Below, piece by piece: positions 3,202 to 63,327 of a DNA stretch of 64,000 nucleotides (position 1 is its first letter; every line of letters begins with the position of its first letter). Source of the stretch: Cirrosporium novae-zelandiae (lineage: Eukaryota); NCBI GenBank assembly GCA_026023565.1, contig JAPETS010000040.1:124001-188000 (forward strand), in the 5' to 3' direction. A program made the translations under genes and the position numbers. The notes under the pieces are model-generated. The model worked only from the letters and a program-made list of their open reading frames with translations, was not told where the DNA came from and ran no database searches.

Positions 3202-6200
3202 TCACAACAAATCAAACTTTTTAAAAGTCCCCACAACCGGCGCCTTACCCGGTCCTCTCATCTCTTCCAAACTATCCCACACGACCCCATCCGCCCCCGC
3301 TGGTCTTGGATTCTCTATCCCCATCCCCATCCCCTCACCCCTCTCCACTCCTCCCTTCTCTCCTATTCCCACCTCCTCCTCAGGCCACACCTCCCCCACA
3401 GCCCACCCACACAACCCACAAACCTCGGTCACCAACCCCTCCAAATTCCTCGCCCGTTCCCACATCGCCCTCCTCACCAATCCCTCCACCAACCTTTCCA
3501 CCTCTTCCAAAACCCCATTAACTCTTTCTACCAATCTGCGTACACTGCTGACTAAGTATTCCTCTTCGTACACGCTTCCTTTTTTTCCCCGGGCGCGTTT
3601 GCGCTCCTCGCGGCGGCGCGATTTTGAGCTTCGGCGTGTGGTGTTGGTGTGTAAGGTGCTGTTTGTGGCATGGCCGGTGTAGCGGGTCATGAGGGTGGGG
3701 TTCATGGCGCTGGTTGCGTTGGTGCTGGCTAGGGAGATGTTGTCTGGGATGTTATTGTCGGGGCCTTCTCCTGCGAGGGCGGTCCCCTCGAAGAATGCGA
3801 GCGGGTCGGTTGCTTTTTTGATGCGGAGTTCGTGGATTCGCGGCACCTGAGCGTGCAGCTGGGATTTCATTTCTGCGAGCATGTCGATTGTTGAGGCTAG
3901 GGCGGAGGTGAGGCCCGGGTCGAGGATTTGGGGGAGGAGGGTTGGGTCGTGTAGGGATAGGAGTCGTGCTGCGTGGGAGAAGTGCGTTGCTTTGCAGTAT
4001 AGCCGGGCCGCGGCGGGGATGTCGTGGAGGTGCGTGAGGTGGATTTCGGCGGCTGAGAGGTAGTCGTGGGATTCGGCGAGGGTGGCTGCGAGGGTAGTGG
4101 CGAGGTTTGTGAGGGCGGTTTCGGGGAGGGAGATTAGGGAGGCCGTTGTGAGGCATGCGGACCAGTCTAGGGATTGTCGGTAGGAGTCTGTGGCTTTTTG
4201 GTATAGTGAGAGGGATTCGTATGCGATGCCGGCTTCTTTGAATTTGGAGTTCGTGTAGAGGTGGTCGGCGTATTGCTGCATGATTTTGTTGAATTTTTCT
4301 TGCTGGTATCGCAGGAGCGATAGGCCGAAGCTGTAGAGGGTGTGTTTTTCTACGTAGGCACTGAATTCGTTGAAGACGTCGAGCGAGTGGAGGTGCTCGA
4401 GTGCTTTGGTATGCCGACCTAGGTGATCGTCGATGGAGAATTTTCGGCGGAGAAGCGGTTGTGCCTCTAAGTTTTGTAGGAATGGCATGTATTCCTTGGG
4501 GTCTTTCTGGGATTGCTGGGCCACCAGAAGTGCCAGCTCGAGGTCGTAGAGACCAAGGGCGTTGTCGTAGAGACGGTTTACGTCCACAAGGAAGCAGATG
4601 TGCTCGATTGCTTTGGTGGCTAGGGCTGTGGATTCGGTCCCGAGTTTCTTTACGAGGAGAAGTCCCGAATCGTAATCCGGAGGGGATTTGCAGACGTGCG
4701 CCGTGATTACGTTCTGGAGGTTGGTATTTAGTCGCGTTTTTAGGACTTCGATTATGGCGTCGCAGATGGTGTTGACTTTGGATTTTGGGGTTTCTAGCTT
4801 GGTTGATGGAGGGCTGAGCTTGGATTCGCCGTTGCTCTGTTTGACAATACCGTTTGGGTCGTGTCTCCTTGAGGGTAATGTCTCTTTATAGAGAGTCTGG
4901 GAGACATCTTCTTCCTTAAGATGTGATAGGAACAAGTCGATATGCTCGACTTTCTTGAGCTGGTTCACGAATAGAACGGTATGGAAGAGAAATTGCTCTG
5001 GCGCATAATCATACAGCAGATTCATATCTACCCGATGATTTCTGCACGCTAAGAATGCTTTCCTGTAGTCTTTTGCTATGATACTTTCTCGGATACCTGG
5101 GAGAACAAGAGCTCTGGGATATATTGTTTCTAGATTACCCCGCGGCATTTGAAAAACTAATGCGAAAGAGGATGGCATAACCGTTACAAGACGAGCTCCT
5201 CGCTCGATGCTTCGACATCTTTCATCCGTTTCGGGGGCATCTGGCGGGATCTCTAGATCCTGCTCAAGACTAGACTCGCCTTGTGGAGATTCCGTCTTGC
5301 TTAGATGAACAAACTTGACCAAATGCTGTGATGTGGTGAAAATTAAGTGGGAAGAGGTGGCCAAGAACGAGGTGACACCCTTAACAATAGGGGTCCCTCG
5401 ATAATAGAGGGCCCCATTTGCCGATAATCCAAAAGCATAAGTCTATCTAGCTGTTAGCAATCTGTCATTGGGAGCAGAAGAAGCTAGCTATACATGACCG
5501 GGATTCTCAACCAATTCTACCCATGGTGTCTCGGGGTTCTGTGCGAGCATAGACGCTTCGGATATGGGTTGACCCGCTAATTTAATATCCATCCAATTGG
5601 TCACTGAACCATTGGCCTGTTGCTTTAGACAGAATGCTCTCTTGAAGGAGTTGTCTGGGCATATTCTACTTATACGGTCTGTGAGAGGGATCGTGTATAT
5701 AGTCTTTGCCTCAGTAGCGCCAGGACTTATCTCCAGAATGTTCTGGCCCTCAGAGTGAGACTGAAGAACATATATCAGCTCGTCTTCTAACACACAGACT
5801 TGCTGATTGTGGATCTTTGATGACGAGCTTGTTAGCTCTACAGATCGATGCAACACAGGAGCTGGAATAGGTTTGGCGTCATAGTTAATACCGTAAATGC
5901 TAAGGCTAGAATGGTGAAGTACAACAAGTTTAGTACCGTCCTGATTGAACGCAACATCCAAGGAATTCGCCGAAACTTCAAGTTCATGAAGTGCCATCGG
6001 TGGAGGGACATTAGCAAGCCTCAGAGGACTGAACTTGACCGTTTCTGTGATTGTCAGATTTGCCAATTCATTGGTGAAGTTACTTACGTCCATCTATAAC
6101 GGCAATCGAGCCTGTGTCATGTGGGGGATATATAGGCCCACGACAAATATCAAAAATATATTCAAGTCTTTGCAAGATGTCTACACGCGATTAGTACTCA

Positions 6201-8254: not shown

Positions 8255-8586
8255 CTATTTTGTATATATTAGTTCTCGAACTGGTTAATAAATGATGGTC
8301 TAAATAATGTTACTGTACTTTAGAGTGGTGTTCAACAATTGAGTGGAGGTTTATGGTGGTAGCGGTACCTATTGAATGGATGTATGGTATGATGTTGGAG
8401 AGTTGGTGAGCTTGGTTAGATTCATGATCGCACCAACGGACTGGACTAATCCTTGCTCGGCAAATTCCGCCTACAAACAACTTACCTCATTTAACCAACC
8501 AGCAAATTCAAAAGTTCGAGAGTTCGAGAGTTCGCCAAAATCACTCTCCATTTATAACTTGCTTCTCCCTTATCTTCACAGCAAGC

Positions 8587-11500
8587 ATGGACGAGCTGTT
8601 CGACGTTTTCGACGAACAGCCGGAAGCTGTCCAAGGCAATAACGAACAATTTAAGAGCAGACCAAAAAGAGACAAATCGAAAAAGCGACAAGCCAATGGT
8701 GCTGTGAAAGAGCATAGTGAATCCAGCAATGTCGTGGATAATGATATGCAAGTAGATGAAACCCAAACTGATGGAAATGATGCGCTGGTAGATGGACAGC
8801 AAGTACAGCCTGATGCGAAACGACAACGCCGAGAAGCAGAGGTTGAGCCAGTTGTTACAGATGCTTTCGAAACCGAAAAGTCGAGAGAAGTTGCTGCATC
8901 CGCGGGTCTTCAGGCAGCCCAAGAGGGCAATACTGTTGTTCTATCACATCAAGTTCGACATCAAGTCGCCCTCCCTCCAGATTATGATTACGTGCCTATT
9001 TCAGAACACAAACGCCCAGAGAAACCAGCAAGAGAATGGCCTTTCCAGCTTGACCCGTTTCAACAAGTCTCCATAGCGTCTATCGAGCGAGAAGAAAGCG
9101 TATTAGTATCCGCACATACTAGTGCAGGAAAAACTGTGGTGGCCGAGTATGCTATTGCGCAGAGCTTAAAGAAAAACCAACGAGTCATTTACACAAGTCC
9201 TATCAAAGCCCTAAGTAATCAGAAATATCGAGAGTTTGCCGCCGAGTTTGGTGATGTTGGTTTAATGACCGGGGATGTGACGATCAATCCAACTGCTACA
9301 TGCTTGGTTATGACTACGGAAATTTTGCGATCTATGCTCTATCGAGGGTCGGAGATTATGAGAGAAGTTGCTTGGGTGGTATTCGATGAAATTCATTATA
9401 TGCGAGACAAATGTATGCCCTGAAGTATTCTGTTTCCATTCTGTGCTAACATTTCTCCAGCTCGAGGAGTGGTTTGGGAGGAGACCATTATTCTTCTACC
9501 AGATAAAGTCCACTATGTCTTCCTGTCAGCTACGATACCTAATGCAATGCAATTTGCCGAATGGATCACAAAAATGCACAGTCAGCCTTGCCATGTCGTT
9601 TACACCGATTTCCGACCAACTCCTTTACAACATTACTTTTTCCCAGCCGGAGCAGATGGTATACACCTTGTGGTTGACGAGAAGGGAAACTTTAGAGAAG
9701 AAAACTTTCAAAAAGCCATGTCCGCAATTGCCGAGAAGCAGGGCGACGATCCTTCTGACCCAATGGCACGAAGAAAGGGCAATGGCAAAGACAAGAGGCT
9801 TAACAAGGGGGGCACCAAGGGGCCATCAGATATATACAAGATTGTGAAGATGATTATGATGAAAAATTATAATCCCGTCATCGTGTTCAGTTTCAGCAAG
9901 AGAGAATGCGAAGCGTATGCTTTACAGATGGCTTCCCTTACTTTCAATGATGATTCCGAAAAAGCAATGGTGAAAAACGTTTTCAACAATGCCATTGAAA
10001 TGCTTTCAGAGGAAGATCGAACCTTGCCCCAGATACAACACATCCTACCTTTACTCCGTCGGGGTATTGGTGTACATCATTCAGGACTTCTTCCAATTTT
10101 GAAAGAGACGATTGAAATTTTGTTCCAAGAAGGTCTTATCAAAGTTCTTTTCGCTACTGAAACATTCTCAATCGGTTTGAACATGCCAGCCAAGACTGTT
10201 GTCTTTACTAGCGTTCGAAAATTCGATGGCATTGCTATACGCTGGGTCACCCCTTCAGAGTTCGTTCAGATGTCAGGAAGAGCAGGCCGACGTGGTCTTG
10301 ACGATCGAGGTATTGTTATCATGATGATAGATGAAAAGATGGATCCTGCTGTTGCCAAAGAAATTGTTCGTGGCGAGCAAGACAAACTTAATTCTGCATT
10401 CTATTTGGGCTATAATATGATACTCAATCTTATGAGAGTGGAGGGTATTTCGCCGGAGTTTATGCTCGAGAGATGTTTCTACCAGTTCCAAAACACTGCA
10501 AGTGTATCAGGTTTGGAAAAAGGTATATTCTAATGCTTCTTTTTTACTTACTTTTACTAACACGTTTCTGAAGAACTCCATGAGCTGGAAGCCAAAAAAG
10601 CGAACATGCGAATTGAGGATGAAAACACTATCAAAGAATACTATGAACTTCGTCAACAACTCACTACCTATACCAAAGATATGCGGGATGTGGTCAATCA
10701 TCCAAATTACTCCCTTCAATTCATGCAACCCGGCAGGCTGGTGAAGATCAAATATCAAGACTACGATTTTGGATGGGGTGCGGTGGTCAACTTCAATCAA
10801 CGGAAACCTGCAAAAGGGCAACCCGCTGAAAGCATCACTCCTCAAGAATCATTTATCGTAGACGTCCTGTTAGAAGTCTCAGATAGCTCGACAGTTGGAA
10901 CCAAGACTCATTCAAAGCTTCCTCCTGGTGTCCGACCACCAGCCAAAGGTGGAAAATCCAAAGTCGAAATTGTTCCTGTGCTTTTGGGTTGCGTGGAGTC
11001 CATTGGTCACATAAGGATATTCCTTCCCCAGGACCTGAAAACCGTCAGCGATCGACACACGGTGAAAAAGGCACTCGATGAAGTCAAGCGCAGATTCCCT
11101 GACGGGATTGCCGTGCTAGATCCAATTGAAAATATGGGCATCACTGATGAATCTTTCAAAAGCCTATTGAGAAAAATTGAGGTTCTCGAATCTCGCCTGT
11201 TATCCAATCCTCTCCACAACTCTCCTCGTCTTCCTGATCTCTACAACCAATATGCGGACAAGATGGAAATTGCAAACAAAATCAAGGAGGCCAAAAAGAA
11301 GATCAAGGCCGCCTTTTCAATTATGCAGCTCGATGAACTCAAATGCCGTAAACGAGTCCTCCGCCGCTTCGGTTTCATTAATGAAAATGATGTCGTCCAG
11401 CTCAAAGCCCGAGTTGCCTGTGAAATCAGCACAGGCGATGAGCTAATGCTTGCAGAACTATTATTCAATCGCTTTTTCAACGAGCTCACCCCAGAGCAGT

Positions 11501-12031
11501 GTGCAGCCGTTCTAACATGCTTCGTGTTTGAAGAGAAAGCCGACTCCTCGAAGCCGTTACGAGAGGAGCTGGCAAAGCCATTCAGAGAAATCCAGGCTCA
11601 AGCAAGAATCATTGCAAAGGTATCAATGGAAAGCAAGCTACCAGTAAACGAGGATGAATATGTGCAAAGTTTCAAATGGCAGCTCATGGATGTCATGTAC
11701 GAATGGGCACAAGGGAAATCGTTTGCTGAGATTTGGTACGTGTTATCCCAATCCATATATTTCCCCCTTCTACCCTTCTACTACCAAACCAAACATCCCC
11801 CTCCCCACACCCCCACAAATATATGCACACACACTAACCCCCCCTCACAGCAAAATGACCGACGTCTACGAGGGAAGTCTAATCCGCACCTTCCGCCGCC
11901 TGGAAGAATGCCTCCGCCAAATGGCAGAAGCCTCCAAAGTCATGGGCAACGATGAACTACGCGAGAAATTCGAATCTGCTCTCTCGAAAATAAAACGCGA
12001 TATCGTTGCTGCGCAGTCTTTGTATTTGTAA
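8587..12031 (+). CDS. MTR4: Ski2-like DExH RNA helicase Mtr4/Dob1 (exosome/TRAMP cofactor)
   Basis: Motifs [56 protein letters not shown], a KOW/arch region and DSHCT end [11 protein letters not shown]. Introns 9413-9460, 10523-10573 and 11736-11850. Confidence 0.98.
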
Positions 12032-20399: not shown

Positions 20400-22097
20400 C
20401 CCCACGGGATATCATCATCATCATTATCGTTATCATAGTCGGTTTTGGTCTTTTTTTATCATTATGCTTTTAACGCGTTGTTTCTAAATTCAACCGAGAG
20501 AGAAAGAGGAGGAGAGGGAGAGAGAAGAAAAGAGAGAGAGGGGTAGTGTGTGTGGTAGATATAAGATTCCTTGCATGTGTGTGTCCGTCTTAGACTAAAT
20601 TTATTTTTATTATATTGTTTTCGTATGTGTATTTGGAATTTTTTTTACCAATTATTACATTTGTTCCTGTTGGTTTTTATTTTTATTTTTATATCCTAGG
20701 TTTTGTTGTGTTGTGTTGTGTTGTGTTGTTGGTGGAAGGGGGTGGGGGGGTGAGATGAGACTGGGATGTGAGATGAGATTGGATGGGATGAGATGGGATA
20801 TGTGTTGGACTATTACTACCTACCTACCTACCTACCTACCTATCTATCTATCCATCTAAATAAAAGTTGAAAGTTGGAAGTTGGAAAGATTAAATGAAGA
20901 AAAGGGAGGAGAAGAGAATAGAATAAAGAGGAGAAAAGAATAGAGGATAAAAACGCATACCTTTCCTCCTTCCTCCTTCCTCCCCTCCTGTATCTTCCCT
21001 CTATTTCTCCGTTTGCATTCTTTTATCTATCTAACCCTACCTATTTGAATAAAAGTTGGAAAGTTGGAAGTTGGAAGGACTAAATGAAGAAAGGAAGGGG
21101 AGGGGGGGAGAAAAGGAAAGAGAGAAAAGGAAAGAGAGAAAAGAAAAGAGGAGGAATACAATGCATGCTATCCTTCTCTACCTTCGTTCTCTACTCTTAT
21201 CTTCTTTTTACATCCATCCATATCCACATCTCCATCCATCTTATTCTATCCTATCTATCTATCTACGTTCCATGTATCCGTTCATGTGTCCGCTCATGTG
21301 TTCATTTATTGTGAATATAAATCAATCAAATCAATCAAAATCAGACATCCTTCCTGTACCTAAAATACATAGCCAAATAACCTATAGCTAGCTAGATATT
21401 TAAGTATATGAGTGTGAGTATATGAATAAGGTGGTGGTAGAAATACAGTTTTTTTTTTTTTTTTTTGGGATGTATCGATGTATTTGTAAAGTAAAGTAAA
21501 GTGGTAAAGTAGTATTATGAGAGAGAGAGAGAGGGGGGGGAGGATACGACAGTTGTGAATGCGGAATGTAATTAAATATGGATATAAATACGAATACAGA
21601 TACAGATATGGATACAGCTATACAAACATGCACAAGCATAGGTATGGGTATGGGTATAGGTAGGTAATTATAAAAAACGAATAACTAATTACAGATATAG
21701 ATATAAATACGAACCCGAGTCCCCGTATCCGTACCCGTATCCGTATATCCAGATATCCAATTGGAAGGGGGGAACCAAAGAAATAGATTAAATTTTTTTT
21801 TTTTTACTTTTTTTTTTTTTTTTTATTTTCATACCTATCTACCTAAACCTACTTACCTATTTAATCAACTTACAACTTCTTTCGAAAGATAAAGAAAAGA
21901 AAATTGGTTAATAAAGAGGGTTAACTTTATCTTCTTCTATCTTACATTTCATATCTTACATTCTTCCCTTTACCCTTTTGTGTTATTATTCATCCATCAT
22001 TCTATTATCCTACAATCACATCCATATATATCTATCATCCACGAGTTATAGTAGTAGCCCCAAAGACCAGAAACTTATGAACTTTTGCCTCCCTCTC

Positions 22098-48406: not shown

Positions 48407-50998
48407 TCACCAGGCATTATAAAGGAGTCCTTCATGTCTCTGGTTAATGGCAGTGGTGGCGGGAGTGGCGGAGATGGAGATGGGGTTGGAGTATGTACCC
48501 TGTCGATATCTTGGTATTTGATCTTCTTCTTCGTCCGAGTCATCATCATCATCATCTTCGTCCGAGTCATCTTCTTCCTCCACCACTTCCTCTTCTTCGT
48601 CTGAGTCTAAGTCTTCTTCGTCCGAGTCTGTGTCTTCGCCTGTGGTTGTGAGGTCGTGGAATTGTTGTTGACTTAACCAGTAGGCTTCTGATGAGTCGTA
48701 AGGTTCGGCTTCTGATGATGATGGTGATTGCGATGATTGGAGCTGGGAGTCCATATCGTCACCATATCGCAAATAACTTCCGAAATAGTTTTCCGCTATA
48801 AGCTCATTGAGAACCTCCCCTCCCTCGGAGTAAGAACAACCTGGATAGATAGCGGTTACTATACAGTTTTCTTCTTGGGCTGCTTTTTTATTGGAATCTG
48901 GGAGATGTGACATACCAAGTTCTGTTTTAAGCTCTGTGAGGCCAGGTGAATTTTTTTGGTCACAAAAATAGTCCTTGGTACGTATAATGTGAAACGCTTT
49001 CTTGTACAGATTTTTGTTGGAACTATGTTTTTCCAGGATCTTTCTTTCAATTGGGGAATAATTGTCGTCCGATGGTGGGTCTAATATAAACTCTGATGCC
49101 ACTTCTAGTTCCGGTCCTGGTTCTGGTTCCGGTTCTGGCTCTGAGTCTGAATCCGAGTCTGAATCCGATCCTGCCAAATCGATTACCGAGACAGTCGATA
49201 TATTCACCTCATTTTTCCTGTCCAGGTATGTTGGATGCTCTAGAAGCTCCCTCCGCTTCTCCCGTCGAATGAATTTATGCACCAGCTCCCGGGTTTCCCA
49301 ATTGGTTGTTTCCAACGTCTCATTCTTTGCAGTCTCGACGGCTGTTTGTCTCAATTTTTTCCAGATATCTTCTTTAGATATGTCCTTTTCCATATTGTTC
49401 TTGGACAGGCATCGGGTCACATAAATTCGGAAACTAGGCGGAAAATCCATGACACTCTGGGCATTTTCTAGCCTGTCAATCTCAGCGTCTGAATAACGAG
49501 AAGACGCTCGGACTGGTCCTTTGGTGGTGTGAGGTGGATCTGAAGCACGGTGCGTCTGAGAAGCTAATTCCTTTCCTCTACTAGCAGATTCTTTTCGGGT
49601 ACAGTGTATCTTTTGCGCTTTTTTATTGATGAGGGTGTCTGGTTTATCTTGTCCTTCTGAAGACTCCGTCCCTCGTTCCTTTCGTTTTCTGTTCAAGTAT
49701 GAAGTTGAGATTCGTTGTTCCAGCCCAGGATACTCTTCCTTCAGGATACGAATGCAAGGTGACTCATGTTGATCCCAATCAATTGTCCACACTGTGCCTC
49801 TCTCGACCGCACCGTTGACGATTTCTTTCAGTTTCATTTCTTGAGCTTCTTGGCTAATATTGGCCAACGAATTACGAAAAAGTGGCTTCCTGATAAATCT
49901 TCGTAGGGATTCAGGCCATTTATTCCAGTTAGGAGAAGCAAATAATTCAATGAGACTATCGGATGGAGGATTCAGTTTCGGCTCCAGCTCTGGTTTTGGT
50001 TCTGGTGTTAGATCTGGCACTATAAGGGTACGAGTATTTTGGCTAGTAAGTTTTTGATGGACGGGAAGTTTTCCTCTACTCTCACGTGCCAAGGAAGCGC
50101 GCGATTCCCTTTCTTCCTTTTCTTCCTCTTCTTCTTCTTTCTTCTCCTCTTCCACTTCCTCCTTCTCTTCCTCCGCTATTTCTTCTTCATCCAAAAGCAA
50201 GTCAGTAATGGTATATCTTGAAGAGTCGCACATAATATATATAGCTTTTACTAGGTCTCTGAGCTTTGCATATGATACGGTGTTGATGGCGATTAGGAGG
50301 TCAGGTGGGATGCTTATAAATTTGTTCGGAGCCTGTTGCATGAGGCCGATATCGAATCGTCTAAATTGGTCCTCCCCTCTTTTCACCATTTTGGTGACTT
50401 CAGGCGTTAAGCTATTCGACCCTAAAGATTGGGGGGTTGAATTAAGCTCGGGAAGTTGACGCGAATCCCTGTCATTTACGGGATATCCATCACTAATGTG
50501 GTACGCGTTCTCACCACCAGAACCACGAGTTGGACCTCTACTCTTTGGAGCTTTATGTCTTTCCTTCCTTCGACTAGAAGCTTCACCAACTAAGTCATGG
50601 CTGGATTTTCCAAGCTGCCTTTGAATTTTCGCATCCAAGTGGTGCCATCGCATCGAAGTTGACTGAGCGTTGGACCCGTAGAACTTCCCAAGTTCTCCCC
50701 ATTTAATTTGACGCAGGTCAAATGATATCTTGATGAGACGCCAGAAGAACAAAGTAGAATCAACCACGTCCTCATCCTTGGTAATTAGTTTATCTCCATG
50801 TGGGCCTGATGCTTCTTGGAGCTTTTGATCTAGACGGTACCATCGCGAGCGAGCTGCTGGCTTAGTGATCTTGTAGAAATCTGCAAGTGCCTGCCAATTG
50901 GCTTTGTTGTGATCAAAAGATACCTTTATCAGATGCCATAAGAACAGTGCGGACTCGGTGATAATAGTCCCCGGGTAGAGGATCTGTTTATTGGACAT
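48407..50998 (-). CDS. Uncharacterised 863-aa protein: two Myb-like repeats, two Thp3/LENG8-like helical modules and acidic tracts
   Basis: Long uninterrupted ORF with two internal repeat pairs. Pair 1: FLWHLIKVSFD..NWQALADFY..ARSRWYRLDQKLQ and FFWRLIKISFD..KWGELGKFY..TSMRWHHLDAKIQ. Pair 2: WPESLRRFI..KLKEIV..GTVWTIDWD and FPPSFRIYV..KLRQTA..ETLETTNWE. Confidence 0.8.
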   Translation of the reverse strand: MSNKQILYPGTIITESALFLWHLIKVSFDHNKANWQALADFYKITKPAARSRWYRLDQKLQEASGPHGDKLITKDEDVVDSTLFFWRLIKISFDLRQIKWGELGKFYGSNAQSTSMRWHHLDAKIQRQLGKSSHDLVGEASSRRKERHKAPKSRGPTRGSGGENAYHISDGYPVNDRDSRQLPELNSTPQSLGSNSLTPEVTKMVKRGEDQFRRFDIGLMQQAPNKFISIPPDLLIAINTVSYAKLRDLVKAIYIMCDSSRYTITDLLLDEEEIAEEEKEEVEEEKKEEEEEEKEERESRASLARESRGKLPVHQKLTSQNTRTLIVPDLTPEPKPELEPKLNPPSDSLIELFASPNWNKWPESLRRFIRKPLFRNSLANISQEAQEMKLKEIVNGAVERGTVWTIDWDQHESPCIRILKEEYPGLEQRISTSYLNRKRKERGTESSEGQDKPDTLINKKAQKIHCTRKESASRGKELASQTHRASDPPHTTKGPVRASSRYSDAEIDRLENAQSVMDFPPSFRIYVTRCLSKNNMEKDISKEDIWKKLRQTAVETAKNETLETTNWETRELVHKFIRREKRRELLEHPTYLDRKNEVNISTVSVIDLAGSDSDSDSDSEPEPEPEPGPELEVASEFILDPPSDDNYSPIERKILEKHSSNKNLYKKAFHIIRTKDYFCDQKNSPGLTELKTELGMSHLPDSNKKAAQEENCIVTAIYPGCSYSEGGEVLNELIAENYFGSYLRYGDDMDSQLQSSQSPSSSEAEPYDSSEAYWLSQQQFHDLTTTGEDTDSDEEDLDSDEEEEVVEEEDDSDEDDDDDDSDEEEDQIPRYRQGTYSNPISISATPATTAINQRHEGLLYNAW

Positions 50999-51058
50999 TT
51001 TGCTGTAAGAGCGTTTAAGATTGTTGGTTAATGATTTCGTGATATAAACCTAGCACGG

Positions 51059-51068
51059 ATCACGTGAC
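51059..51068. promoter_or_regulatory. E-box ATCACGTGAC (Cbf1-type bHLH site)
   Basis: RTCACGTG consensus on both strands, about 60 nt upstream of the start codon of the 48407-50998 gene. Confidence 0.45.
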
Positions 51069-51297
51069 GAGATATCGTCATATCAGGGGACAAATGCTAT
51101 CATTGCAGATATCCCAAGGAAGTATAAATTATCAAGTATTTATGCTTCATATCCAAGGTACTATAAAATATTCTACGTGCATAGACTATATCTTGCTACA
51201 AGCTAATTATACCTTTGACGCTTAACCAGCTTCCATCTTTCAATATTATTTAAAGCCTAATTAATGCTCAACCCCCTGATAGATCGCCAATCTCTAA

Positions 51298-53220
51298 TCA
51301 ATAAATATACCGGAAGCTACCAAGAACCAAATTAGTATATCTCTTCCAGCAACGTTAAACAATAGTCACGTACTTGAGGTTTTCCCGATCAGTCATGTCC
51401 GAAAAAGCGGTAGCATCCAAGTCTCTTCCGTCTAATCCACCCTCATTTTCTGACTGTATCTTATCGCGCCTTCGATTCTCCCGTGCAAGCAGGAACCATA
51501 ATGTAAGTATCACACAGACCTCGAGAAGATGAGAGACAATCATTGACCAGATACCAAGCTGGTAAGATGGTCTGTTGTGGTCATTAGTAATCAGTAAATT
51601 ATCTTAAAGGAGTAGGAAAAGCTCACGCCTGATCGGTCTTGTAGAAGAAGGGTCCTGCAATGTTACCTATACAATATCCCAAGAAAAGGCAAGCGTTTGC
51701 TATAACTTTCTTGGTATGGCCGGCCGTGTTTGCTGTTTGCAAACTGAGGATCATTACAAACCCGGCATTGTACGAGCCAGTGAGGTAGTAGCAGATAAGT
51801 CGTCCGACTTTCTGATGGACAGGTAAAAAACGAAGACCAAATGCTCCGGCGATGTTGGGGCAGAGGAAGATGAGGATAAAAAGGCAGCGTTTGTTGGTAA
51901 AACGATCATTTAGGAAGATGCAAACCAGGATACTGAGGGATATGAAAGCTCCATACGGAACCTGCATGAGGGTGGTGACGAGAGTGGAAAATCCAAAACC
52001 TTTGATGATTATGGTTCCGAAATTGCTGATCCCCCCGTTTGGGACGTTGGCGACGACACCAATGATGAAAAAAATATAGAGTTTGTAGTCAAGGAATGCT
52101 TCTTTGACCTGATATGGTTTGAAGCGCTTGTTCTCTACTCCAGTCTGGTTCCCTTTAAGGCGTTCGACTGCCATACGACGTTGTGTCTGAGTAAGAAGTT
52201 TCGCCTAGTAGATTGTCAGCTATGGGCTGCTGTCTTGAAGAGGGTTCGAGGCTAACAGTGACGGGCGAATCTGGAAGGAATACGTATAGAATGATGCCCC
52301 AACCACAGCATAAGGCACCACTTTATAGGATCTTTGTTAGTTTGGGTTTTTCTTTCAGGGTTTTTTCTACATACATAATTATAAACTCATATTTCCATGA
52401 TGGTAAAGATCCCTTGATATGTCCAATACCATATCCAAGAAGACCCCCACCTGCGATGCCTAGACCATTGGCAGTGTACCATATCCCTATCCGAATAGGC
52501 TGCTGCCGTCGAGTGTACCACATGCTTGTGATGAGTATAAAGGATGGATCACTGCAAGCCTCTGCAGCTCCAGCAAGAAAACGGAGGACAGCAAGACCAG
52601 CGAAATTGCTAACCGTACCTTGAAGCATTAAAAATATACCCCTAAGAATTACATTTATCAGATCTAGGTATCATTCGTCTCAACGGAGATAAAGATTTCC
52701 TACCACATAAAGATATTGATGCCGAGGTATTTCGCTAAGAGTAACAATTAGCCATGTTTCTATCACCTCAAGCAGTTGTCGTACCTATCGGGAATCTTTG
52801 CATCATTAGGTTTGTCGGAAATGCCCATGCCAAAAAACCGAAATAGAAGAGGCTACTGAGCCAATTGTATTGTGTTCCATGCAGGTTCAAATCATCTCTA
52901 ATTCCAAAGATAGCAGCATACGAGAGAGTGGTCTTGTCGATATAGAAAAATGCATAGCAAACGGCAATATATGGCAGAATCATAAAATCGATTTTGCGTT
53001 CGAGTCTCCTGAGTTCTTTTGGATCAATAGCTTCTTCGAGCTCGTCAGGGTTGTCAAAGAGAGCCATGGCAGTGTCGCCATCTCCAGCGCGGGACATCTG
53101 CCATTTCCCATGTCGAGCTCGTGGTACCTCTTCAGCATGCGAATAGGTAGGTTCCAAGGAAACATCGTCCATAGCTGGAGTACCTTTCTCCGGATCGGCA
53201 TTAAGTTTAATGTCGGCCAT
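51298..53220 (-). CDS. MFS transporter, allantoate permease (Dal5 / anion:cation symporter) family
   Basis: LERKIDFMILP..FFYIDKTTLSYAAIFG, YNWLSSLFYFG, LRFLAGAAEA..SMWYTRRQQPIRIG, LPDSP, NTAGHTKK and terminal DMTDRENLNFRYIY*. Multi-exon, with several short GT-AG introns. Confidence 0.94.
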
Positions 53221-53259
53221 ATTGACGAAGCAGTAGAACTGGACTTTCAAGACAGAGGA

Positions 53260-53825
53260 AATTGATAAGGTGAAGAAACAGCCCTTTCAGTTATGGAAAT
53301 GTATCCAGGTATCAACTCGACCCTTGTCATTAGTAGCTTTGTATTCGGGATGGTGAAGGGACAAAAAAATTCTAGAGAAAGGAGGAAGACAAAAGGATAT
53401 TTAAATAGACTATGCACAGGTCTTCTAGAAGACGAATACCCATAGAATTAACAAGTACTTTTGCACTTTAATAAAAATTGGACCATTGCAAGAGATGACA
53501 GAGGATCGACGGGGGATCTCGAAGTGACAACCGGGCCATTGTCAATGCGAAATGCGAGAAGAAGAATACTGTGTATTCCAATTTGAAGGAGCAATGGAAA
53601 GAGAATTGATAAAAAGTCTTCCCCGCATATGCAGGAAATAGTGTGGGGGTTTTGTGGGGAGGAAAGGAAGTAAAGGTAGTAAAGAACCATGTCAATCCAA
53701 CTCCATGCCTTGTAAGTTGTGGCAAGGGAGGAAAGAAGTGCGGAATTTTGCCCGTCAACAAATCCGATACTGTTATCAGTTTTTCTGTTGGATAAGATGA
53801 AAGCATTTTTCAGCCATGTGGGGTC
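53260..53825 (-). promoter_or_regulatory. Cluster of HGATAR (AreA/GATA) and SYGGRG (CreA) motifs upstream of the Dal5-family permease
   Basis: GATAAG at 53264 and 53791, GATAAA at 53608, TTATCA at 53773; GTGGGG/CCCCGC at about 53621, 53643, 53654 and 53818. These are short motifs, but consistent with nitrogen/carbon regulation of this family. Confidence 0.35.
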
Positions 53826-54250
53826 AACATCCCTTTTACGTTCTGAACCCCCAAGTACTGGATTTTACATAGGGGTGTCATCGGTGGATCCCTAGTACAT
53901 TATACACAGTAATAGAGATTAAAAATGCTGATGACTCGAGACCAGATGGTCGTCCGAGGATCCTTGAGTATCATTTCTTATTGCTGAGAATTCTGCCAAA
54001 CACCCTCTACAGCACAATTGTCCCTAACCACCACTAGGAACACTTAATAACTCCATGCCTAGCCGAACTAGTTGGTATCCCAAAGTCAGAAACTTTCAAT
54101 CAAACGCCGTCTGGATATCTTTTCATAACAGTCTCCCTAATCTTTCACCTCTTAACCCCTTTTATGACATTAACTTGTGCAGTCCCACCGTCGAGTATCC
54201 ATCTCACTTCTGGGAATCAAATTCAACAATTCCCAAAGGTGATAGAACAC

Positions 54251-55508
54251 TCATTTTCGTGCCCTTACTCTTCGCTCCATATGTGGGCCTTGCGTGCATC
54301 CCTCTGCCAGTCCATCTCCTCCGCAACAAGTCCACTTGTATTTCCTTGGGAATGCCTTCCGTAGTTTGATGGAACTGATGCTATCATGAATGTCTTCATC
54401 GGGATACTCTTCGTGGAACTGAGCAGAGGCAATGACGGCAGTAATTTCTCCGTCATGACCTTTGAAGCCATTGTAGTCTGGTTTCGCTTTGCCTATCGGA
54501 AAATAAAAGCGAACATTAGCTCTAAGTCCTTATCATAGGCAATCAAAACAACAGCTTTATACTTTGGAAAAGATGGCAAGCGTGCATACCTGGATGATAT
54601 AAACAATCCATAGTTTCATTGTTATTCATGTCAAAAGTGTCCTCACACCTCTGACAGATGGCATAATGAGATATAGGCGCGGACCCTTCAGCAACTCCTT
54701 CATCTTCGTCTAGCTTGCGCTTCAACGACTTTCTTTCCTCTCCATCGCTAGATTCTGCTGCTGATTCTCCCGGAGTAGATGCCTCCTGACCTTGAACGGA
54801 TGGTTCATTATGCATATTCTCCTCCTTCCGTTCTGCCATCAGTCTCTCGGCACATATCAAGGTCTGCGGAAGTGGATGCGCGTCCCAATTGGTATCCTGT
54901 AATGCATTTCTTTCCTCCGCATCCTTCAAAATATTCTTTAGTCTCTTCTCCACAGATACACATCCAATTCCAGGAATTTTGTGGACTTCGGAAAAGGATC
55001 TCGATACATAATCATATAGAGCGTTAGGCCATTTATCTCCATGTAGTGGCGCAATACTATTTATGTGAGAGATGATCGAGGCTTGGGATGAAGGTTCGAG
55101 CCGAACTTTTCCTCCCGAAGGAGGTTGTGATGCAACTTGGCTTTCATCTGAAGTAGATGGAGTGGTCCATGATTGCTCTTCGGTCCAGGTGAATGAGGAC
55201 TCAGCTACATCGATAACTCTTTCCTTCCCCTTGCCAGCAGGGGAAGGAGTGTCTTTCTGTCTTGAGGGAAGGGTTTCTGTCTGGTTTGAAGTGATCGGTA
55301 CATCCTGCAAGAGAAGGACAGAGATATCCTTAGCTGTAGCAAGCGAGCATCTAACAATGGCAGTTTTTAAGACGTGACGGAGACGAGCAGGTGACGCGGT
55401 ATCAATTCTCTTGAGCAGGCGATCAATGTTGAGAGAGTTTGATGGAATGGAGGATGAGGATGAAGATAAGGGGGAACCATGACCCGAGAAGCGATATCTG
55501 TTGGACAT
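54251..55508 (-). CDS. Uncharacterised protein with a Thp3/LENG8-like helical module and a C-terminal CHORD-like Cys/His zinc-binding domain
   Basis: Exon 1 is 55508-54590; intron 54493-54589 (GTATGC..GCTAAT..TAG). Exon 2 completes CQRC-x13-CLYHPG..FPRKYKWTCC-x8-C-x4-H, with stop at 54251-54253. Confidence 0.8.
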
Positions 55509-55882
55509 GGTGCAGTTTATTGCAGTTGTATGTTTTCTATCACGTCTTCCAGGTCGTCCAAGTCCAGGTCATCCAGATGGAGTATGGAGAGCTTGCAGTA
55601 ATTAGAGGTCACAGCATTAGTTACAGGAGCAGCAACAACAGTAGGGGAAGGAGGATCGACCGATGGAGCTCCATATCTAAAGGCTGCCGGGATGGGTTGA
55701 ATGCCACGCCACTGTATCAACTGGAGGACCCTTGGTGATACCGAATGAATCAAATCCCAAGCTCAGGAGATCAGGACGCGTACAACGGTTCCTTGTCGAG
55801 TGGTTTGGAAGGAAGCTAACAGTGCGGGATCCTGACCTTGGCATATCTTGGTGTATCTTGGTGCATCTTGGCACTAATTAAA

Positions 55883-55918
55883 TTGCTTAACTTGCTTAAC
55901 TTGCTTAACTTGCTTAAC
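55883..55918. repeat. 9-bp tandem repeat (TTGCTTAAC) x4
   Basis: Read directly; preceded by a short 10-bp ATCTTGGTG-type repeat. Confidence 0.9.
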
Positions 55919-57661: not shown

Positions 57662-59908
57662 TTTGTGTGTTGTTCAGCGGTTAAGAAATTGATGATGATT
57701 GATTACAGCAACAATACTTCTCGTCATGCTTTATTACTTTATTACGTGCCTTGTCTTGCTCTCTTGTCTTCTTGCCCCTCCCCCGATGGCTTTGTGCACA
57801 ATATTGTGTACGAGTCTATATAATTGGTTCAAATTCTCAAGATGAAGATAATTTTCTTCTTGGCAGGCACCCCGTGTACAAGAAGGCTTGAAAGGCTGAA
57901 AGATGGTGATACCAAAGCATTTTTTTCTTTGTTTCCTACGAGGCATTTTCCATTTCCTAGACAGAGCTGACGAGAGAAAGTTGGAAGTAGCCTCCTTGAA
58001 CCAGCAGCAAGCCCCCTCTTTTGCCGAGGATTCGATTCTACTTATTGGATGATGAATGGACCTGGGACGAAGAATACTTGGATGAGTAAGAGACGGAAAT
58101 GCAGAGAGGCAGAGGAGGCAGAGGAGGCAGAGGAGGCAGAGAATCAGGAAAGGCAAAATAATAGAAGAGTAGAACGTAGAAAGTGGAAAGTGGAAAGAGT
58201 GGAAGAGTAAGCGGTAGGACAAACTCTGCATCATCAGCATCATCAGCATCATCATGATTGTTATTGATTTATTACTATCATCCCATGTTATAGTGTTGGC
58301 ACCCTAATCACCCTATATTTGGAGATGAGAGGAACTGAATATCCACTGTAATGTAATTACACCCTCTTCCACATCATTACCTTATGAAAACATGATTTAA
58401 AAAATATATAAATATACATTGGATACATAGATATATATCAAAAAAGGGGGGGAAATACAATAATTAGTACTAGGTTGATGGTAATGTGTTGGTAATTATT
58501 TGTATATTGTTTCTTGTACTTTATCTTCATTGTTAATCATCTAACCAAAGAAAGTAATTCAAAGGAAACAATGAGGGACTTGGTACTATACATAAGTTAC
58601 AATCTTAAATGACTTGCCCACTTTAATACCCAAAGTAGTCTACCTAAGGTATCCTAAGGTATCCTAAGGTATCCAGTAAAGAGATACTTGCTACTTACCA
58701 CTTACCATTTACCCTTAGACTACTAACTTACCCTTACCATTTACCACCACTTACCTTACCTTACCTTACCTTACCATACTCCCCCCCCCCCCAGTATTCC
58801 CCCTCTTCTACTCTTCCTCCCTCTCATCCCTCCCTCCAAAATTGAACCCCCCCCCCAAATCCGCCTCGGCTTTTCGGCCCCTGCATTGGTTCTGCTTGGT
58901 TCTATTTCGCCTTGTCCTGAACCAGTCGTAGTACCAATCGAACACTACAATACGGAGTAGAGAAAACAGACAGAGTCCTACTACTCATACTCACTTAACC
59001 ACTAAACTACTCTACTCTATTCTACTCGTACCCTCCCCCAAACCTTCCAAAACCTCCCCCCCAAACCAACCATCTTAACTTCTTGAACTTGAACCCGTTC
59101 CAAAACGCAATTCACACCACAGCTCATATTTACATTCTCCAACCTCCCTACATTTCTGTTCACTAAATTCTTGTACAACTTCCTTTTTCAACTAACACAT
59201 CACCTGGCTTTTGTTCTCATCGTAGACGATCCCTCGCTTTACCGCGACCCCTCCCCCGACCAACACTACCCCAAAGAAAGGGAGACAGACCACCACTATT
59301 TCGACTGCCATTCAAATACATTGATACAACCACATTCGATTCAACCTTCACCGTAATCCCCCAACAATACCTACAATATACTTCACGCTCCTTCCCTCGC
59401 TGATAACCTTTCAACGCCGCGCCCTTTGTTGCTTGTTCGATTCCGACGGGTCTCGGACATCTGGTGGGCATCCCATTCCGACTACAACTCCCTTTCTTTG
59501 GCCAGCAAGAGAAGTCGTCCGATTACAGATCAGACAAGGACCTTCGTTTTTGCCATCGGCAACGAGCTAGGATACCCATAAATACACCGAGAGACGTATT
59601 CGATAAAAAGTTGGAAATAGCATAGCTTGCACGTCTGCTCTTCCTGGTTGCTTAGAAGCCATCTACATCTCCGTACTATATAATTTCTACGGTTGACATC
59701 GACCGTGGCGCATCACAAGGAAAAGTTGTCTCAACCCGCCCCCTCTTTTACTAAAACAGTTTCCCCTTCTTCGGCACGTCGTGCAACGTCGAAACGCAGT
59801 GGTGGCCAACTTTCACGGTCACCGCCACTGGCTGGAAATATCCATGGGACTAATAGCTCCAAATCAGGAAATGGTGACCCGGCACCGATAGCAATCCATT
59901 TGAGAACA

Positions 59909-62900
59909 ATGGCAGATACACTGCGGGAGGAGACAGGCCGACTGCAAGGCCGGCCAGGTCTTCAAAGCCAACATTCAAGTTCGCTTCCCTCTACCCCATA
60001 CCAGCATCCTCGAAAATTATCCTTTACATCTAGATCTCCATCTCCAACAAAGCGCAATGCTTCGCCGAGATCTGTTTATTCGGAATCGAATAACCCGTTG
60101 CCCTCCCTACGAAGACCAGCTGCTGGGTGTGAATTCGAAACAGGCATGGCAAACTTCAAGCGCAGGATGCCATATTCATTAGGGGGAGACAAATTAGAGA
60201 ATGCCAAGACAACACCCAAGAAACATTTAGATCAAGCTGAAGAAGCCAAGGTTACGAAGGACATGAACGCCCTCTATGATGAAATAGTACCGTCTAATGA
60301 AAGTGACCAAAAGAGAGTGGAGTTTGTGGCCAAATTGGAGAAGCTACTCGATAAGCAATGGCCTGGGAAAGACATTAAAGTTCACGTATTTGGATCAACG
60401 GGTAGTCGATTGGCTACAACCGACTCGGATGGTATGTAAATATAATCAGGAGGTTGGAATCGAAGACTGATAAATTAGTTGACATATGCATCACAACCAC
60501 GATGAAGGAGCTGGAACATGTTTGCACATTAGCGAAATTCCTGGCAAAAAGTAAGTATGCTGTTTGGAGGCATTGTAACATCTCTGACGGACTTGACAGA
60601 TGGTATGGAACGAGTAATATGCGTGTCCCATGCAAAAGTGCCTATTGTGAAGATCTGGGACCCTGAGTTGAGCGTTGCATGCGACATGAACGTAAACAAT
60701 ACTTTGGCAATCGAAAACACGCGGATGATCAGAACCTATGTGGAAATCGATGACCGAGTACGACCTTTGGCAATGATTATAAAGCACTGGACGAGGAAAC
60801 GGAAAATCAACGATGCCGGTCAGTTATATTCGCTAGTGTTGACATGGGACTTTATTAATTCGATCATGGGACAGCTTTCGGTGGCACATTGAGCTCTTAT
60901 ACTTGGATTTGCATGATCATCAACTTTCTTCAAACACGTTCTCCGCCAATATTACCGGTTCTGCAACAACGGCCTCACCAGAGACGAATGACCCCTAATG
61001 GCGAGTTATCTTCCTTTGCGGATGACATCGAATCGTTACGAGGGTTTGGAAAACAAAATAAGGAGACGCTCGGGGAGCTACTATTTCAATTTTTTCGAAG
61101 ATATGGCCACGAGATAGATTTCGAGAAACTTGTTATATCTGTTCGACAAGGAAAGCTGATCTCTAAACACGATAAGGGATGGCATCTGCTTCAGAACAAT
61201 CGTCTTTGTGTAGAAGAGCCTTTCAGTACAACAAGGAATCTAGGAAATACGGCAGATGATATTTCCTTTCGGGGGTTGCATATGGAAATTCGTCGTGCGT
61301 TTGATTTGATAGCTGCTGGAGATCTGGATGCTTGCTGTGAAGAATATGAATATCCACTAGAGGAGGAACGTATCTGGGAGAAACCGCCTCCGCAACCTCG
61401 ACCAGTTATTACCCAGGCGGCTCCAACTCCTAGGAACAATAGAAATGGGCGAGGTGGAAGACATAGCAATGGTTATCGTGGAGGGAATTCGAACCGGCGT
61501 GCCTCTAGCGCGACGACATCTGGTCGATTCAACAGCCCTCATTACAATCAAATGGCTTCCCCTTCACGCGAATATTTCTTACAGACGCAACAATATCAGC
61601 TTCATGATCAGCTCTTCCAACAATATCAATTCCTGCAAGCCCAAGAGCAGGAGTTACGTATTCAACTTCATCGTCAGGCTCAGAATCACTTGCTCGCACA
61701 AGCACGAGCACGAAGACGAGAGGCAGAAGGTGACGACGAATATGCCAACGCGCAAGATGATTATCATGGTCGTCGTCCTGGTACAATTAATCTCCCACCT
61801 CTGAGTGCACCTCTAAGATCAACCATGTTCTCACCTCCTATTGGGTATTTACCAATTGGAATACAGTATTTTCCTGGAGTAAATACAAACCCTCCCTCTC
61901 CTTCACTACCGCCGGTCGAATCGGACTCGAGACGCAGCCTTAACCGCCAGACATATTCAAATGGAGCTTCTGGGGGAAGCGCAAGAGCACAGTCTCAACC
62001 TGCTAGACCCGCATCGGGTTCACATTCCGGTCAGCGCGTAAGTCCAACGGAGCAGGCAAACCCAATTTATGGACATCATCTGCAAAAAGGTAATCAAAGG
62101 GTCGCTGCTGGATACGGCACTACGGCTCAAGATCCAATACACTATATGAAAGGAGGGATCCCTGTCACGAAAGCGGTTACGGCCGAGGATCCTATACCAA
62201 AAGAATACGTCGGCTACTTCTTCGGTACTCCTTATGGAGCGCTACCCCTCCATTACGGGCAGATGCACTCCAAACTGGCCGCTTATGGAGATGGTTCAAA
62301 CCGAGGAAGACAGATGTCTCCGGCTATTGACAGAAAGGGCGTGGAAACATTTCACTTATCTATGCCACCAACTCCACAACAGCAGTCTCATCGTCATCAA
62401 AACGGAAACTCTGTCAACTCTGCCAACAGCCGGAACACTACGAATGTGACTTCTGTTTCCAAGTCGAATGGCACACCTAAAGCCCACATCGCAACACATT
62501 ACGGTGGCCCTCTTGTCGTCAACGGGACTCTAGGTGCAGGAACGCATACACATCCGACTTTACATTCTCTGGAGAACAACCAAGCTGCTATGAGCGAAGG
62601 GACAGTTACTTCTGATGATCTATTTGATACTCCCAGCAGCAATTCCGACACAATGTCCCAGGTTGCGATCGAAACGAGCTATCCTGATGTCATGGAGACG
62701 CCACACTATCCCCACCCCGTTTACGATCCTTATAGCCAGTCAAAGCCCGTTGTGGATCACCTCGGGATCTCAAATGGGCCATTGATGGATAATGGGGTGT
62801 TGGAAAACCCTATAAGCTTAATGGCGCAGGAAAACCAACCTGAAACTCGGGAAAGTTTGGTGTTTAGGCCAGCTCCGAATGGTGATATTTTCCGAGATGA

Positions 62901-63327
62901 GGTGCTGGCTCGTGCTATTCAGCCAGAACCGAAGCGGTCAGCCTTGGGGGATCAACTAGCTAAGTTGTCTGCAAAAACAAATGGCATCCCCTTCAAACCT
63001 GTGGATAATCAGAGTCCTGGAACGAAAAATAGGATCGGGATTGAAAAATTGAATCAATTTAGAAGCAACGGTAGCGGCCCAGGTCCAAACATGCCCAATG
63101 GAATATCACACAAGGATGTCTCGAATGAACATCCGGCAGAGGCTCCGAAAGGACCACAGCACACTTTTGCTAAAGCATCCAACGTCCTAGCGAGCCCTGG
63201 TGGTTGGCAACAGACGACAAAGAAAAGGGGTACCCGGCAAAGAGCAAAGTCTCTTAGTATCTCCAACCTCCCTGCCAATGGGCCAGAACCGCTACCTGCC
63301 GATATTTCAAAACGGAAGGGCGGCTAG
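59909..63327 (+). CDS. Non-canonical poly(A)/nucleotidyl polymerase, Cid11/Cid13-like (Pol-beta NTase plus PAP-associated domain)
   Basis: VFGSTGSRLATTDSD|VDIC, AKVPIVKIWDPEL..CDMNVNNTLAIENT, IKHWTRKRKINDA|AFGGTLSSY, ETLGELLFQFFRRY and LCVEEPFSTTRNLGN. Introns 60432-60478, 60551-60599 and 60819-60874. The first in-frame AUG is 59909, but the frame is open back to 59684. Confidence 0.93.

Follow-up and report, generated by a model that had tools for sequence, protein, structure and literature searches.

A Thp3/LENG8-type module without its SAC3 domain in chimeric genes of Cirrosporium novae-zelandiae

What might the N-terminal module of Thp3 and LENG8 do in proteins that lack the SAC3 domain? 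The question is raised by two minus-strand genes, G1 and G2, in the window, the 64,000-nucleotide stretch of Cirrosporium novae-zelandiae DNA analysed here. An earlier note described them as orphans flanking an MFS permease and sharing two modules, A and B, in the same order. BLASTP of G1 against G2 exon 1 gives E=2e-9 across A and B1, the first of the two B copies of G1, and E=0.002 for the second, B2. None of 2000 shuffles was as good for module A (z 6.7), for B1 against G2-B (z 12.7) or for B2 against G2-B (z 9.1), and the shared order holds. The two B copies in 48407-50998 and the single copy in 54251-55508 were recovered by profile and THP3 searches, and the permease is indeed a multi-exon MFS_1 gene, with no sign of membership in the G1/G2 system. 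The features are as follows.

48407..50998, minus strand: G1, a single 863-aa frame
49247..49456, minus strand: G1-B2 (aa 515-584; THP3-module search E 5e-8, profile 48 bits)
49721..49930, minus strand: G1-B1 (aa 357-426; THP3-module search E 1e-5, profile 44 bits)
50180..50308, minus strand: G1 module A (aa 231-273; BLASTP and shuffle test against G2)
50624..50758, minus strand: G1 Myb-like repeat 2 (about aa 81-125; self-match to repeat 1)
50819..50953, minus strand: G1 Myb-like repeat 1 (PF22980, aa 16-60; Pfam E 1.2e-10)
51298..53220, minus strand: multi-exon MFS permease (MFS_1 on two exons; ends read by eye)
54251..54492, minus strand: G2 exon 2 (completes the zinc motif; phase matches exon 1)
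54493..54589, minus strand: G2 intron, predicted from sequence (GT-AG, 97 nt, phase 1; within the HPG codon of the zinc motif)
54590..55508, minus strand: G2 exon 1 (A, linker, B and first half of the zinc motif)
54834..55043, minus strand: G2-B (aa 156-225; best-kept copy, THP3-module search E 1.4e-10)
55296..55430, minus strand: G2 module A (aa 27-71; BLASTP and shuffle test against G1)

G1, of which an exact entry is present in an NCBI-derived collection, runs from two Myb-like repeats through A, an acidic stretch, B1, B2 and an unassigned region to an acidic tail. Its first repeat, a putative DNA binder, matches Myb_DNA-bind_8 (PF22980) at 41 bits against a curated cut-off of 27; the second has no Pfam stretch of its own and is 37% identical to the first over 60 aa (E 3e-8), in line with the tandem Myb-like repeats proposed earlier. 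Residues 636-765 gave no paralogue and a sub-threshold Pfam match only, and a single-sequence fold of the A-B1-B2 region (pLDDT 46, low confidence) was set aside.

The cassette is not confined to the window. A third gene on the same contig (C64), G3, lies about 89 kb away, and alignment shows A plus B to be common to G1 (Myb-like+A+B+B), G2 and G3 (A+B+B+SWIRM), a small family of three genes that are domain-shuffled paralogues, as had been supposed for G1 and G2. No further A or B copy occurs in the 141.5 kb of C64 searched; a sixth B-like place, on C60, was rejected (E 0.24, contains a stop). A Pfam scan found SAC3_GANP (PF03399) in none of the three genes, as the earlier note had it for G1 and G2, and placed the two matches of the genome on contigs C62 and C46; the expected intact THP3 is the gene on C46. 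Neither G2 nor G3 was returned as a protein in protein library searches, and both may thus be unannotated. For G2 exon 1 we found no orthologue outside this genome, only one Thp3 being returned, and no usable match in the Atlas. The window and the four other loci compared with it share no common DNA, and neither terminal repeats nor a RIP signature were detected, giving no support to a transposon-type capture.

The relation of B to Thp3 was established by profile. With the THP3 module as query, five copies were found on C64 (E 1e-10 to 7e-5), and an HMM built exclusively from foreign SAC3-bearing Thp3/LENG8 rows scores these five at 36-68 bits and THP3 itself at 96; the highest score among the five belongs to G2-B, which is 40% identical to THP3 in the module search. 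Over 70 columns the copies share 26-37% identity with THP3. These comparisons show module B to be, at the sequence level, a diverged copy of the N-terminal helical module, about 65 aa long, of the Thp3 encoded in this genome, which bears out the proposed homology to the Thp3/LENG8 segment. Fold and structure-database searches did not recover this relation: Foldseek with the G2-B model gave no match, a VIA fold search with the same model led to unrelated helical proteins (best Z 5.1, rmsd 3.4, 64 aligned), and a PDB sequence search returned designed repeats and weak rows only. The module has no Pfam model and no solved structure in the libraries searched. The G2-B model itself, computed with the family alignment (pLDDT 94), has helices at 7-16, 28-44 and 59-69, including the two-helix core of the ZFC3H1-binding module. 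In the tree, the branches of the five copies are 1.0-1.5 long compared to 0.13 for THP3; the best topology leaves the copies ungrouped (4 changes; bootstrap 3-4), and its starred branches are compatible with one origin. The simplest history would be a single capture, with local duplication and shuffling afterwards.

Across the five copies, the THP3 residue is matched at 56/98 family-conserved positions and at 50/222 others (p=2e-9); on their own, G1-B1 (p=0.07) and G3-B2 (p=0.25) have no significant excess at conserved columns. Identity at codon positions 1-2 is 0.48-0.64, compared to 0.32-0.44 at position 3, and the copies carry no RIP signature. Conserved residues have been kept while third codon positions were largely randomised, indicating that the fold was under selection and, as judged from the alignment, that the copies diverged under protein-level constraint. 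The conserved columns appear to be largely core hydrophobics and prolines, which would indicate a kept fold rather than a kept partner.

Module A and the split zinc motif, earlier taken for orphan sequence, belong to a widespread ascomycete family, automatically named 'C2H2-type domain-containing protein' in the Atlas and with DUF8254 on 12% of one Atlas cluster. A paralogue on C85 (P0161) matches G2 weakly in A (E 0.045; 9/2000 shuffles), at 1e-4 in the first zinc half and at 9e-8 in the second, encoded by exon 2, and has an intron in the HPG codon at the same place. Judged by these alignments, G2 is shown to be a gene of this family with B inserted. The zinc motif of G2 matches no Pfam model, and the likeness to CHORD noted earlier is a loose one: PF04968 has no Pfam match on either G2 exon, scanned separately, or on whole P0161, and the Atlas rows for P0161 (CHORD 0.76, BTK 0.78) fall below the 0.9 bar.

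Detachment of B from SAC3 extends well beyond this genome. About 27 of the 149 profile matches carry B in non-Thp3 proteins, among them F-box-like, PHD and ankyrin proteins, spread through many filamentous ascomycetes and stemming from at least three captures; other carriers include DUF7730 proteins, one named purine/uridine phosphorylase and one named IBR-domain protein. The genera concerned are listed here.

Villophora, Teloschistes: F-box-like carriers of B without SAC3
Phialocephala, Cadophora, Penicillium, Exophiala, Fusarium, Rhypophila: other carriers of B without SAC3

The F-box-like orthologue in the C. novae-zelandiae genome is without B. Many detached copies lie near the Thp3 consensus, with F at the key interface column in 17 of 23 rows, and their repeated capture points to a module able to function by itself. 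The hosts are mixed and not all are nuclear RNA proteins, a point that counts against a docking function. We found nothing on detached copies in our literature search. The label 'lineage-specific' therefore does not suit the detachment; the A+B cassette alone was not found outside this genome.

The SAC3 domain binds PCID2 and Sem1, and that of Thp3 loads Csn12-Sem1 and Sub2; as it is absent from G1-G3, the earlier expectation of Csn12 and Sem1 as partners falls away. Red1 is the fungal ZFC3H1, and the genome encodes THP3, SAC3, a Red1-like protein with zf-C3H1 (on C107), and MTR4. According to PMC13391367 and PMC13322074, residues 288-342 of human LENG8 bind a single helix of ZFC3H1, which scaffolds PAXT, with F301 involved, and this contact recruits MTR4 and the exosome; the TREX-2-like role proposed for the module is thus narrowed to ZFC3H1/PAXT binding. 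Among these papers and PMC12363940, the fold is reported to be conserved to S. pombe. The Red1 alignment showed nothing that clearly corresponds to the human ZFC3H1 peptide, and the literature searched contained no report of Thp3-Red1 binding in a fungus. A complex prediction for G2-B and Red1 exon residues 200-575 scored 0.00, with alignments unused and an uncertain partner fold, and carries no weight for or against docking.

The interface residues vary among the copies. F301 was placed at column 17, as numbering this F as 301 in the LENG8-like P0123 puts E, K, D, E and K at 307, 310, 311, 314 and 318, the interface residues named in PMC12363940. G2-B keeps 17 of 20 conserved columns and has F172, E187 and K191 as equivalents of F301, E314 and K318, with C and V in place of K310 and D311. 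In the other four copies the key column has a residue other than F: G1-B1 has L, with F one residue further on, G1-B2 has L, and both G3 copies have Y. G1-B2 also has W at the E314 equivalent, and neither G3 copy keeps a counterpart of E314 or K318. The 46 orthologue rows have F (37), L (4), Y (4) or M (1) in this column, so that the G1 and G3 residues have precedent in 8 real orthologues.

The explanation we tentatively prefer, at a little short of an even chance, is that nuclear proteins would have acquired B as a portable module for docking to Red1/MTREC. G2-B, at least, would still bind Red1, and MTREC and the exosome would be tethered to the targets of the zinc motif, Myb-like or SWIRM domains without the Csn12-Sem1 and Sub2 loading that SAC3 provides; for the G1 copies, and more so for those of G3, binding would probably be weak or the partner a different one, and tandem copies may add avidity. 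A wider version is doubtful: a mobile 'recruit nuclear exosome' tag would have been grafted many times in filamentous ascomycetes onto chromatin-, DNA- and ubiquitin-related proteins, giving lineage-specific MTREC adaptors that aim RNA decay, and perhaps exosome-linked heterochromatin, at chosen loci, with G1-G3 as one young such family. The loss of F in four copies and of charged interface residues, the long branches and the mixed hosts in other fungi would fit a kept fold with a lost or changed partner. In that case B would serve chimeric, rapidly evolving nuclear proteins as a small helical domain for generic interaction or scaffolding, unconnected to the exosome. We consider this somewhat unlikely given the F, E and K and the conserved columns retained in G2 and the near-consensus state of many detached copies elsewhere.

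It is improbable that these are old chimeric genes now decaying, at least one of them silent, in which the constraint records past function. The failure of library searches to return G2 and G3, the lack of an orthologue outside this genome and the strong divergence would agree with decay, whereas frames of 863, 306+81 and 419+ codons (G1, G2 and G3) remain open with GT-AG introns in phase, despite third positions largely randomised relative to THP3, and no RIP signature is present. Quite improbable, too, is a decoy whose copies would bind Red1 and, having no SAC3, act as competitors of Thp3, so that MTREC-mediated decay would be damped. A single site could be beaten by the tandem copies of G1 and G3, and in human cells the link to the exosome depends wholly on a single LENG8 contact (F301A; PMC13322074); yet the tandem copies are the most diverged, and each gene keeps putative DNA-, chromatin- or zinc-binding domains that a pure decoy would not need.

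Descriptions of the LENG8-ZFC3H1 contact date only from 2025-26. B is present without SAC3 in three genes of this genome and in about 27 further proteins, which suggests a domain that is autonomous and mobile. Copies that still bind Red1 would offer a simple way to evolve new specificity of nuclear RNA decay, as well as naturally occurring variants with which the fungal interface could be mapped; if they do not bind it, they represent a clear case of repeated domain capture. In addition, a profile built on the module would supply annotation for many proteins now called hypothetical.

Compared to known systems, fungal Thp3 (C46) is the source of module B in G1-G3, which are without the rest of Thp3, so that Csn12-Sem1 or Sub2 binding would not be expected. 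The ZFC3H1-binding domain of LENG8 (LENG8-PCID2-SEM1, or TREX-2.1) is a homologous helical module with equivalents of F301, E314 and K318 in G2; in G1-G3, however, it is severed from SAC3 and has Myb-like, zinc or SWIRM domains as its new neighbours, with two copies each in G1 and G3, and the filamentous-ascomycete copies differ by a lengthened loop and an additional, third helix at the C-terminus. With the A plus split-zinc family, G2 shares A, both zinc halves and the intron of the C85 member, but it has about 200 extra residues, including B, between A and the zinc motif. Finally, the other SAC3-less carriers resemble G1-G3 in having the same module in a foreign host protein, whereas none of them has module A and they are annotated as hypothetical or by host domain.

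Two minus-strand genes of the window (C64:124001-188000), G1 and G2, have an MFS gene between them in the 31.4-Mb assembly of Cirrosporium novae-zelandiae (Xylobotryomycetes), and a third family member, G3, is encoded on the same contig:

48407-50998, minus strand: G1, one 863-aa frame
55508-54251, minus strand: G2, with a predicted 97-nt intron
C64:81.6-83.5 kb (L004 1447-3379), plus strand: G3, with A, B, B, a predicted intron and SWIRM

The short helical module A and the ~65-aa helical module B, proposed earlier to be common to G1 and G2, are real common modules (BLASTP E=2e-9), and the A-A, B1-B and B2-B scores between the two genes (B1 and B2 being the tandem copies of G1) were matched by 0/2000 shuffles. 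No library protein was returned for G2 or for G3, and the architectures of G1-G3 were not found described in a literature search. The window also contains two short tandem arrays at 55844-55918 (10 bp x2.8 and 9 bp x4.6), ~350 bp upstream of G2, and a ~110-bp direct repeat (78% identity) at 20837-21136. A Cid1-family non-canonical poly(A)/(U) polymerase gene (59684-63324, plus strand) lies 4 kb from G2, and an MTR4-like exosome helicase gene (8428-11952, plus strand; DEAD, MTR4 stalk, beta-barrel and DSHCT) lies 36 kb from G1, probably by coincidence, the host being a eukaryote.

Module B is homologous to the Thp3/LENG8 N-terminus, as the earlier note had proposed. Built only from foreign SAC3-bearing rows, an HMM gave 44, 48, 68, 46 and 36 bits for the five copies and 96 for the genome's own THP3, in a test that is not fully independent because these rows were originally gathered by a profile containing the orphans. 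Exon 1 of G2 matched the N-terminal end of a C46 gene (E 6e-10), the expected intact THP3 with SAC3_GANP (6e-21); a second, stronger SAC3_GANP match is found on C62, in what is presumably SAC3. The THP3 module had seven matches in the genome at E<=1, comprising itself, five on C64 (E 1e-10 to 7e-5; three in G1 and G2, two in G3) and one that was rejected. The C64 genes reflect local duplication. For each B copy of G1 and G2, THP3 gives a better score than the remaining orphan copies do, and the two of G3 score highest with each other. The predicted fold of the G2 copy has three helices (pLDDT 94, 44-row alignment). G1-G3 thus lie outside the Thp3 family as carriers of a Thp3/LENG8 module, and C88 has a separate gene with a SWIRM part 42-47% like that of G3.

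Exon 2 of G2 led to a gene on C85 whose 189-aa product, P0161, has A immediately ahead of the same split zinc motif, with an intron at the identical codon and phase. P0161 was grouped in Atlas with ascomycete clusters (0.93-0.94), so that the term orphan does not hold for A and the zinc motif, and G2 is an A+zinc gene into which B was inserted. Orphan status is in part a sampling effect, since close relatives appear scarce (the best Red1 homologues found have 32-39% identity). Module A is weakly conserved, its pairwise scores being reached by 0 to 251/2000 shuffles; in a profile search among 163 proteins, left-out copies were recovered at E 1e-5 (G2), 0.016 (G3), 0.034 (G1) and 0.18 (C85), and A was found in none of the other proteins collected. 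Three of the eight Myb_DNA-bind_8 matches genome-wide fall inside 10 kb (C58 85.8-95.5 kb).

Detachment of B is more widespread than the lineage-specific event first proposed. A six-row profile searched against 1.84 billion representatives gave 248 matches at E<=0.001, with 149 besides G1 among the 150 matches listed. Among these, 46/149 have SAC3; the 103 without it comprise 15 with Thp3-like flanks, 44 too short to judge and 44 others, which by eye divide into 17 apparent Thp3/LENG8 fragments and 27 with foreign flanks. Such flanks are common to two to four of the listed proteins in six groups, which argues against mere gene-model errors, although some singletons may be chimeras. Among the SAC3-less hosts are F-box-like, PHD, Zn-cluster, ankyrin and DUF7730 proteins (41 scanned, most without any family), from Villophora, Teloschistes, Phialocephala, Cadophora, Penicillium, Exophiala, Elasticomyces, Fusarium and Rhypophila (12/29 matches looked up were named to organism). 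In the clearest case, B sits within a loop of an F-box-like protein of two lichen fungi, whose orthologue in this genome lacks B and is 43-48% identical either side of the loop. On a poorly resolved tree (71 rows, 67 columns; rows <50 aa and unclassified matches excluded), the 17 foreign SAC3-less rows required 11 changes (bootstrap 10-12), at least three of them forced by well-supported branches, and the five own copies required four; the shared A+B order nevertheless favours a single capture of the latter. Among individual proteins, P0030 (272 aa) combines B with a weak match to zf-C3H1 (E 0.005), the zinc finger type of Red1; P0056 has three tandem B copies without SAC3 and groups with LENG8-like rows; P0127, P0131 and P0113 have two tandem copies each and bear SAC3; and P0142, an IBR-domain protein labelled as from the tree Carpinus fangiana, also contains B and possibly represents fungal contamination.

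According to PMC13391367, human LENG8 288-342 is a conserved two-helix motif binding ZFC3H1 730-747, the peptides bind in vitro, F301A abolishes association with ZFC3H1, MTR4 and the exosome, and the predicted fold is conserved as far as S. pombe. PMC13322074 describes a three-helix bundle with F301 at its centre and a K318-K739 cross-link, and notes that budding yeast lacks PAXT; PMC12363940 names E307, K310, D311, E314 and K318 as contributing, and nothing further on the contact was found in the bioRxiv paper 10.64898/2026.04.13.716336. P0123, which is LENG8-like and bears SAC3, served to map the numbering: once its F is taken as 301, all five named residues fall in place.

Residues at alignment columns 17, 28, 29, 32 and 36 (LENG8 F301, K310, D311, E314 and K318)
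THP3: F, R, E, E, K
G2: F, C, V, E, K
G1-B1: L, Q, E, E, K
G1-B2: L, K, E, W, R
G3-B1: Y, M, D, T, D
G3-B2: Y, L, E, T, I

The B copies diverged under constraint, being identical to THP3 at 56/98 family-conserved positions vs 50/222 others (p=2e-9). Singly, G2 (17/20), G3-B1 (11/19) and G1-B2 (11/20) are significant at conserved positions, and G1-B1 (9/20) and G3-B2 (8/19) are not; identity is 0.32-0.44 at third and 0.48-0.64 at first and second codon positions, and no RIP signature, shared DNA or terminal repeats were seen. B was captured long ago and its fold has been retained, which does not show that its partner was. A retained fold with a changed partner is a rather unlikely reading, and decay of the genes is improbable. 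That the modules act as decoys seems quite improbable. The points against docking on Red1 are that the key Phe is missing in 4/5 copies, a search for the binding helix in fungal Red1 did not identify it, B has a mixed set of hosts elsewhere, and the library searches returned neither G2 nor G3 as a protein.

In fungi, the counterpart of ZFC3H1 is Red1, and that of PAXT is MTREC. C107 carries a Red1-like gene (zf-C3H1 8e-14, a domain also found in its best named homologue); by eye, an RRM-looking stretch lies ahead of its zinc finger (L020 ~5150-5600, plus strand) and is seemingly absent from the aligned homologues. While the homology of B is solid and timely, its function is an inference. In LENG8 the module is a self-contained binder. 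It is a tentative reading, with somewhat less than an even chance, that the G2 copy still docks on Red1, as those of G1 perhaps do weakly. The docked module would then bring MTREC and the exosome to the targets of the attached domains, as LENG8 engages ZFC3H1 in human PAXT, and with SAC3 absent, the Csn12-Sem1 or Sub2 step would be absent as well.
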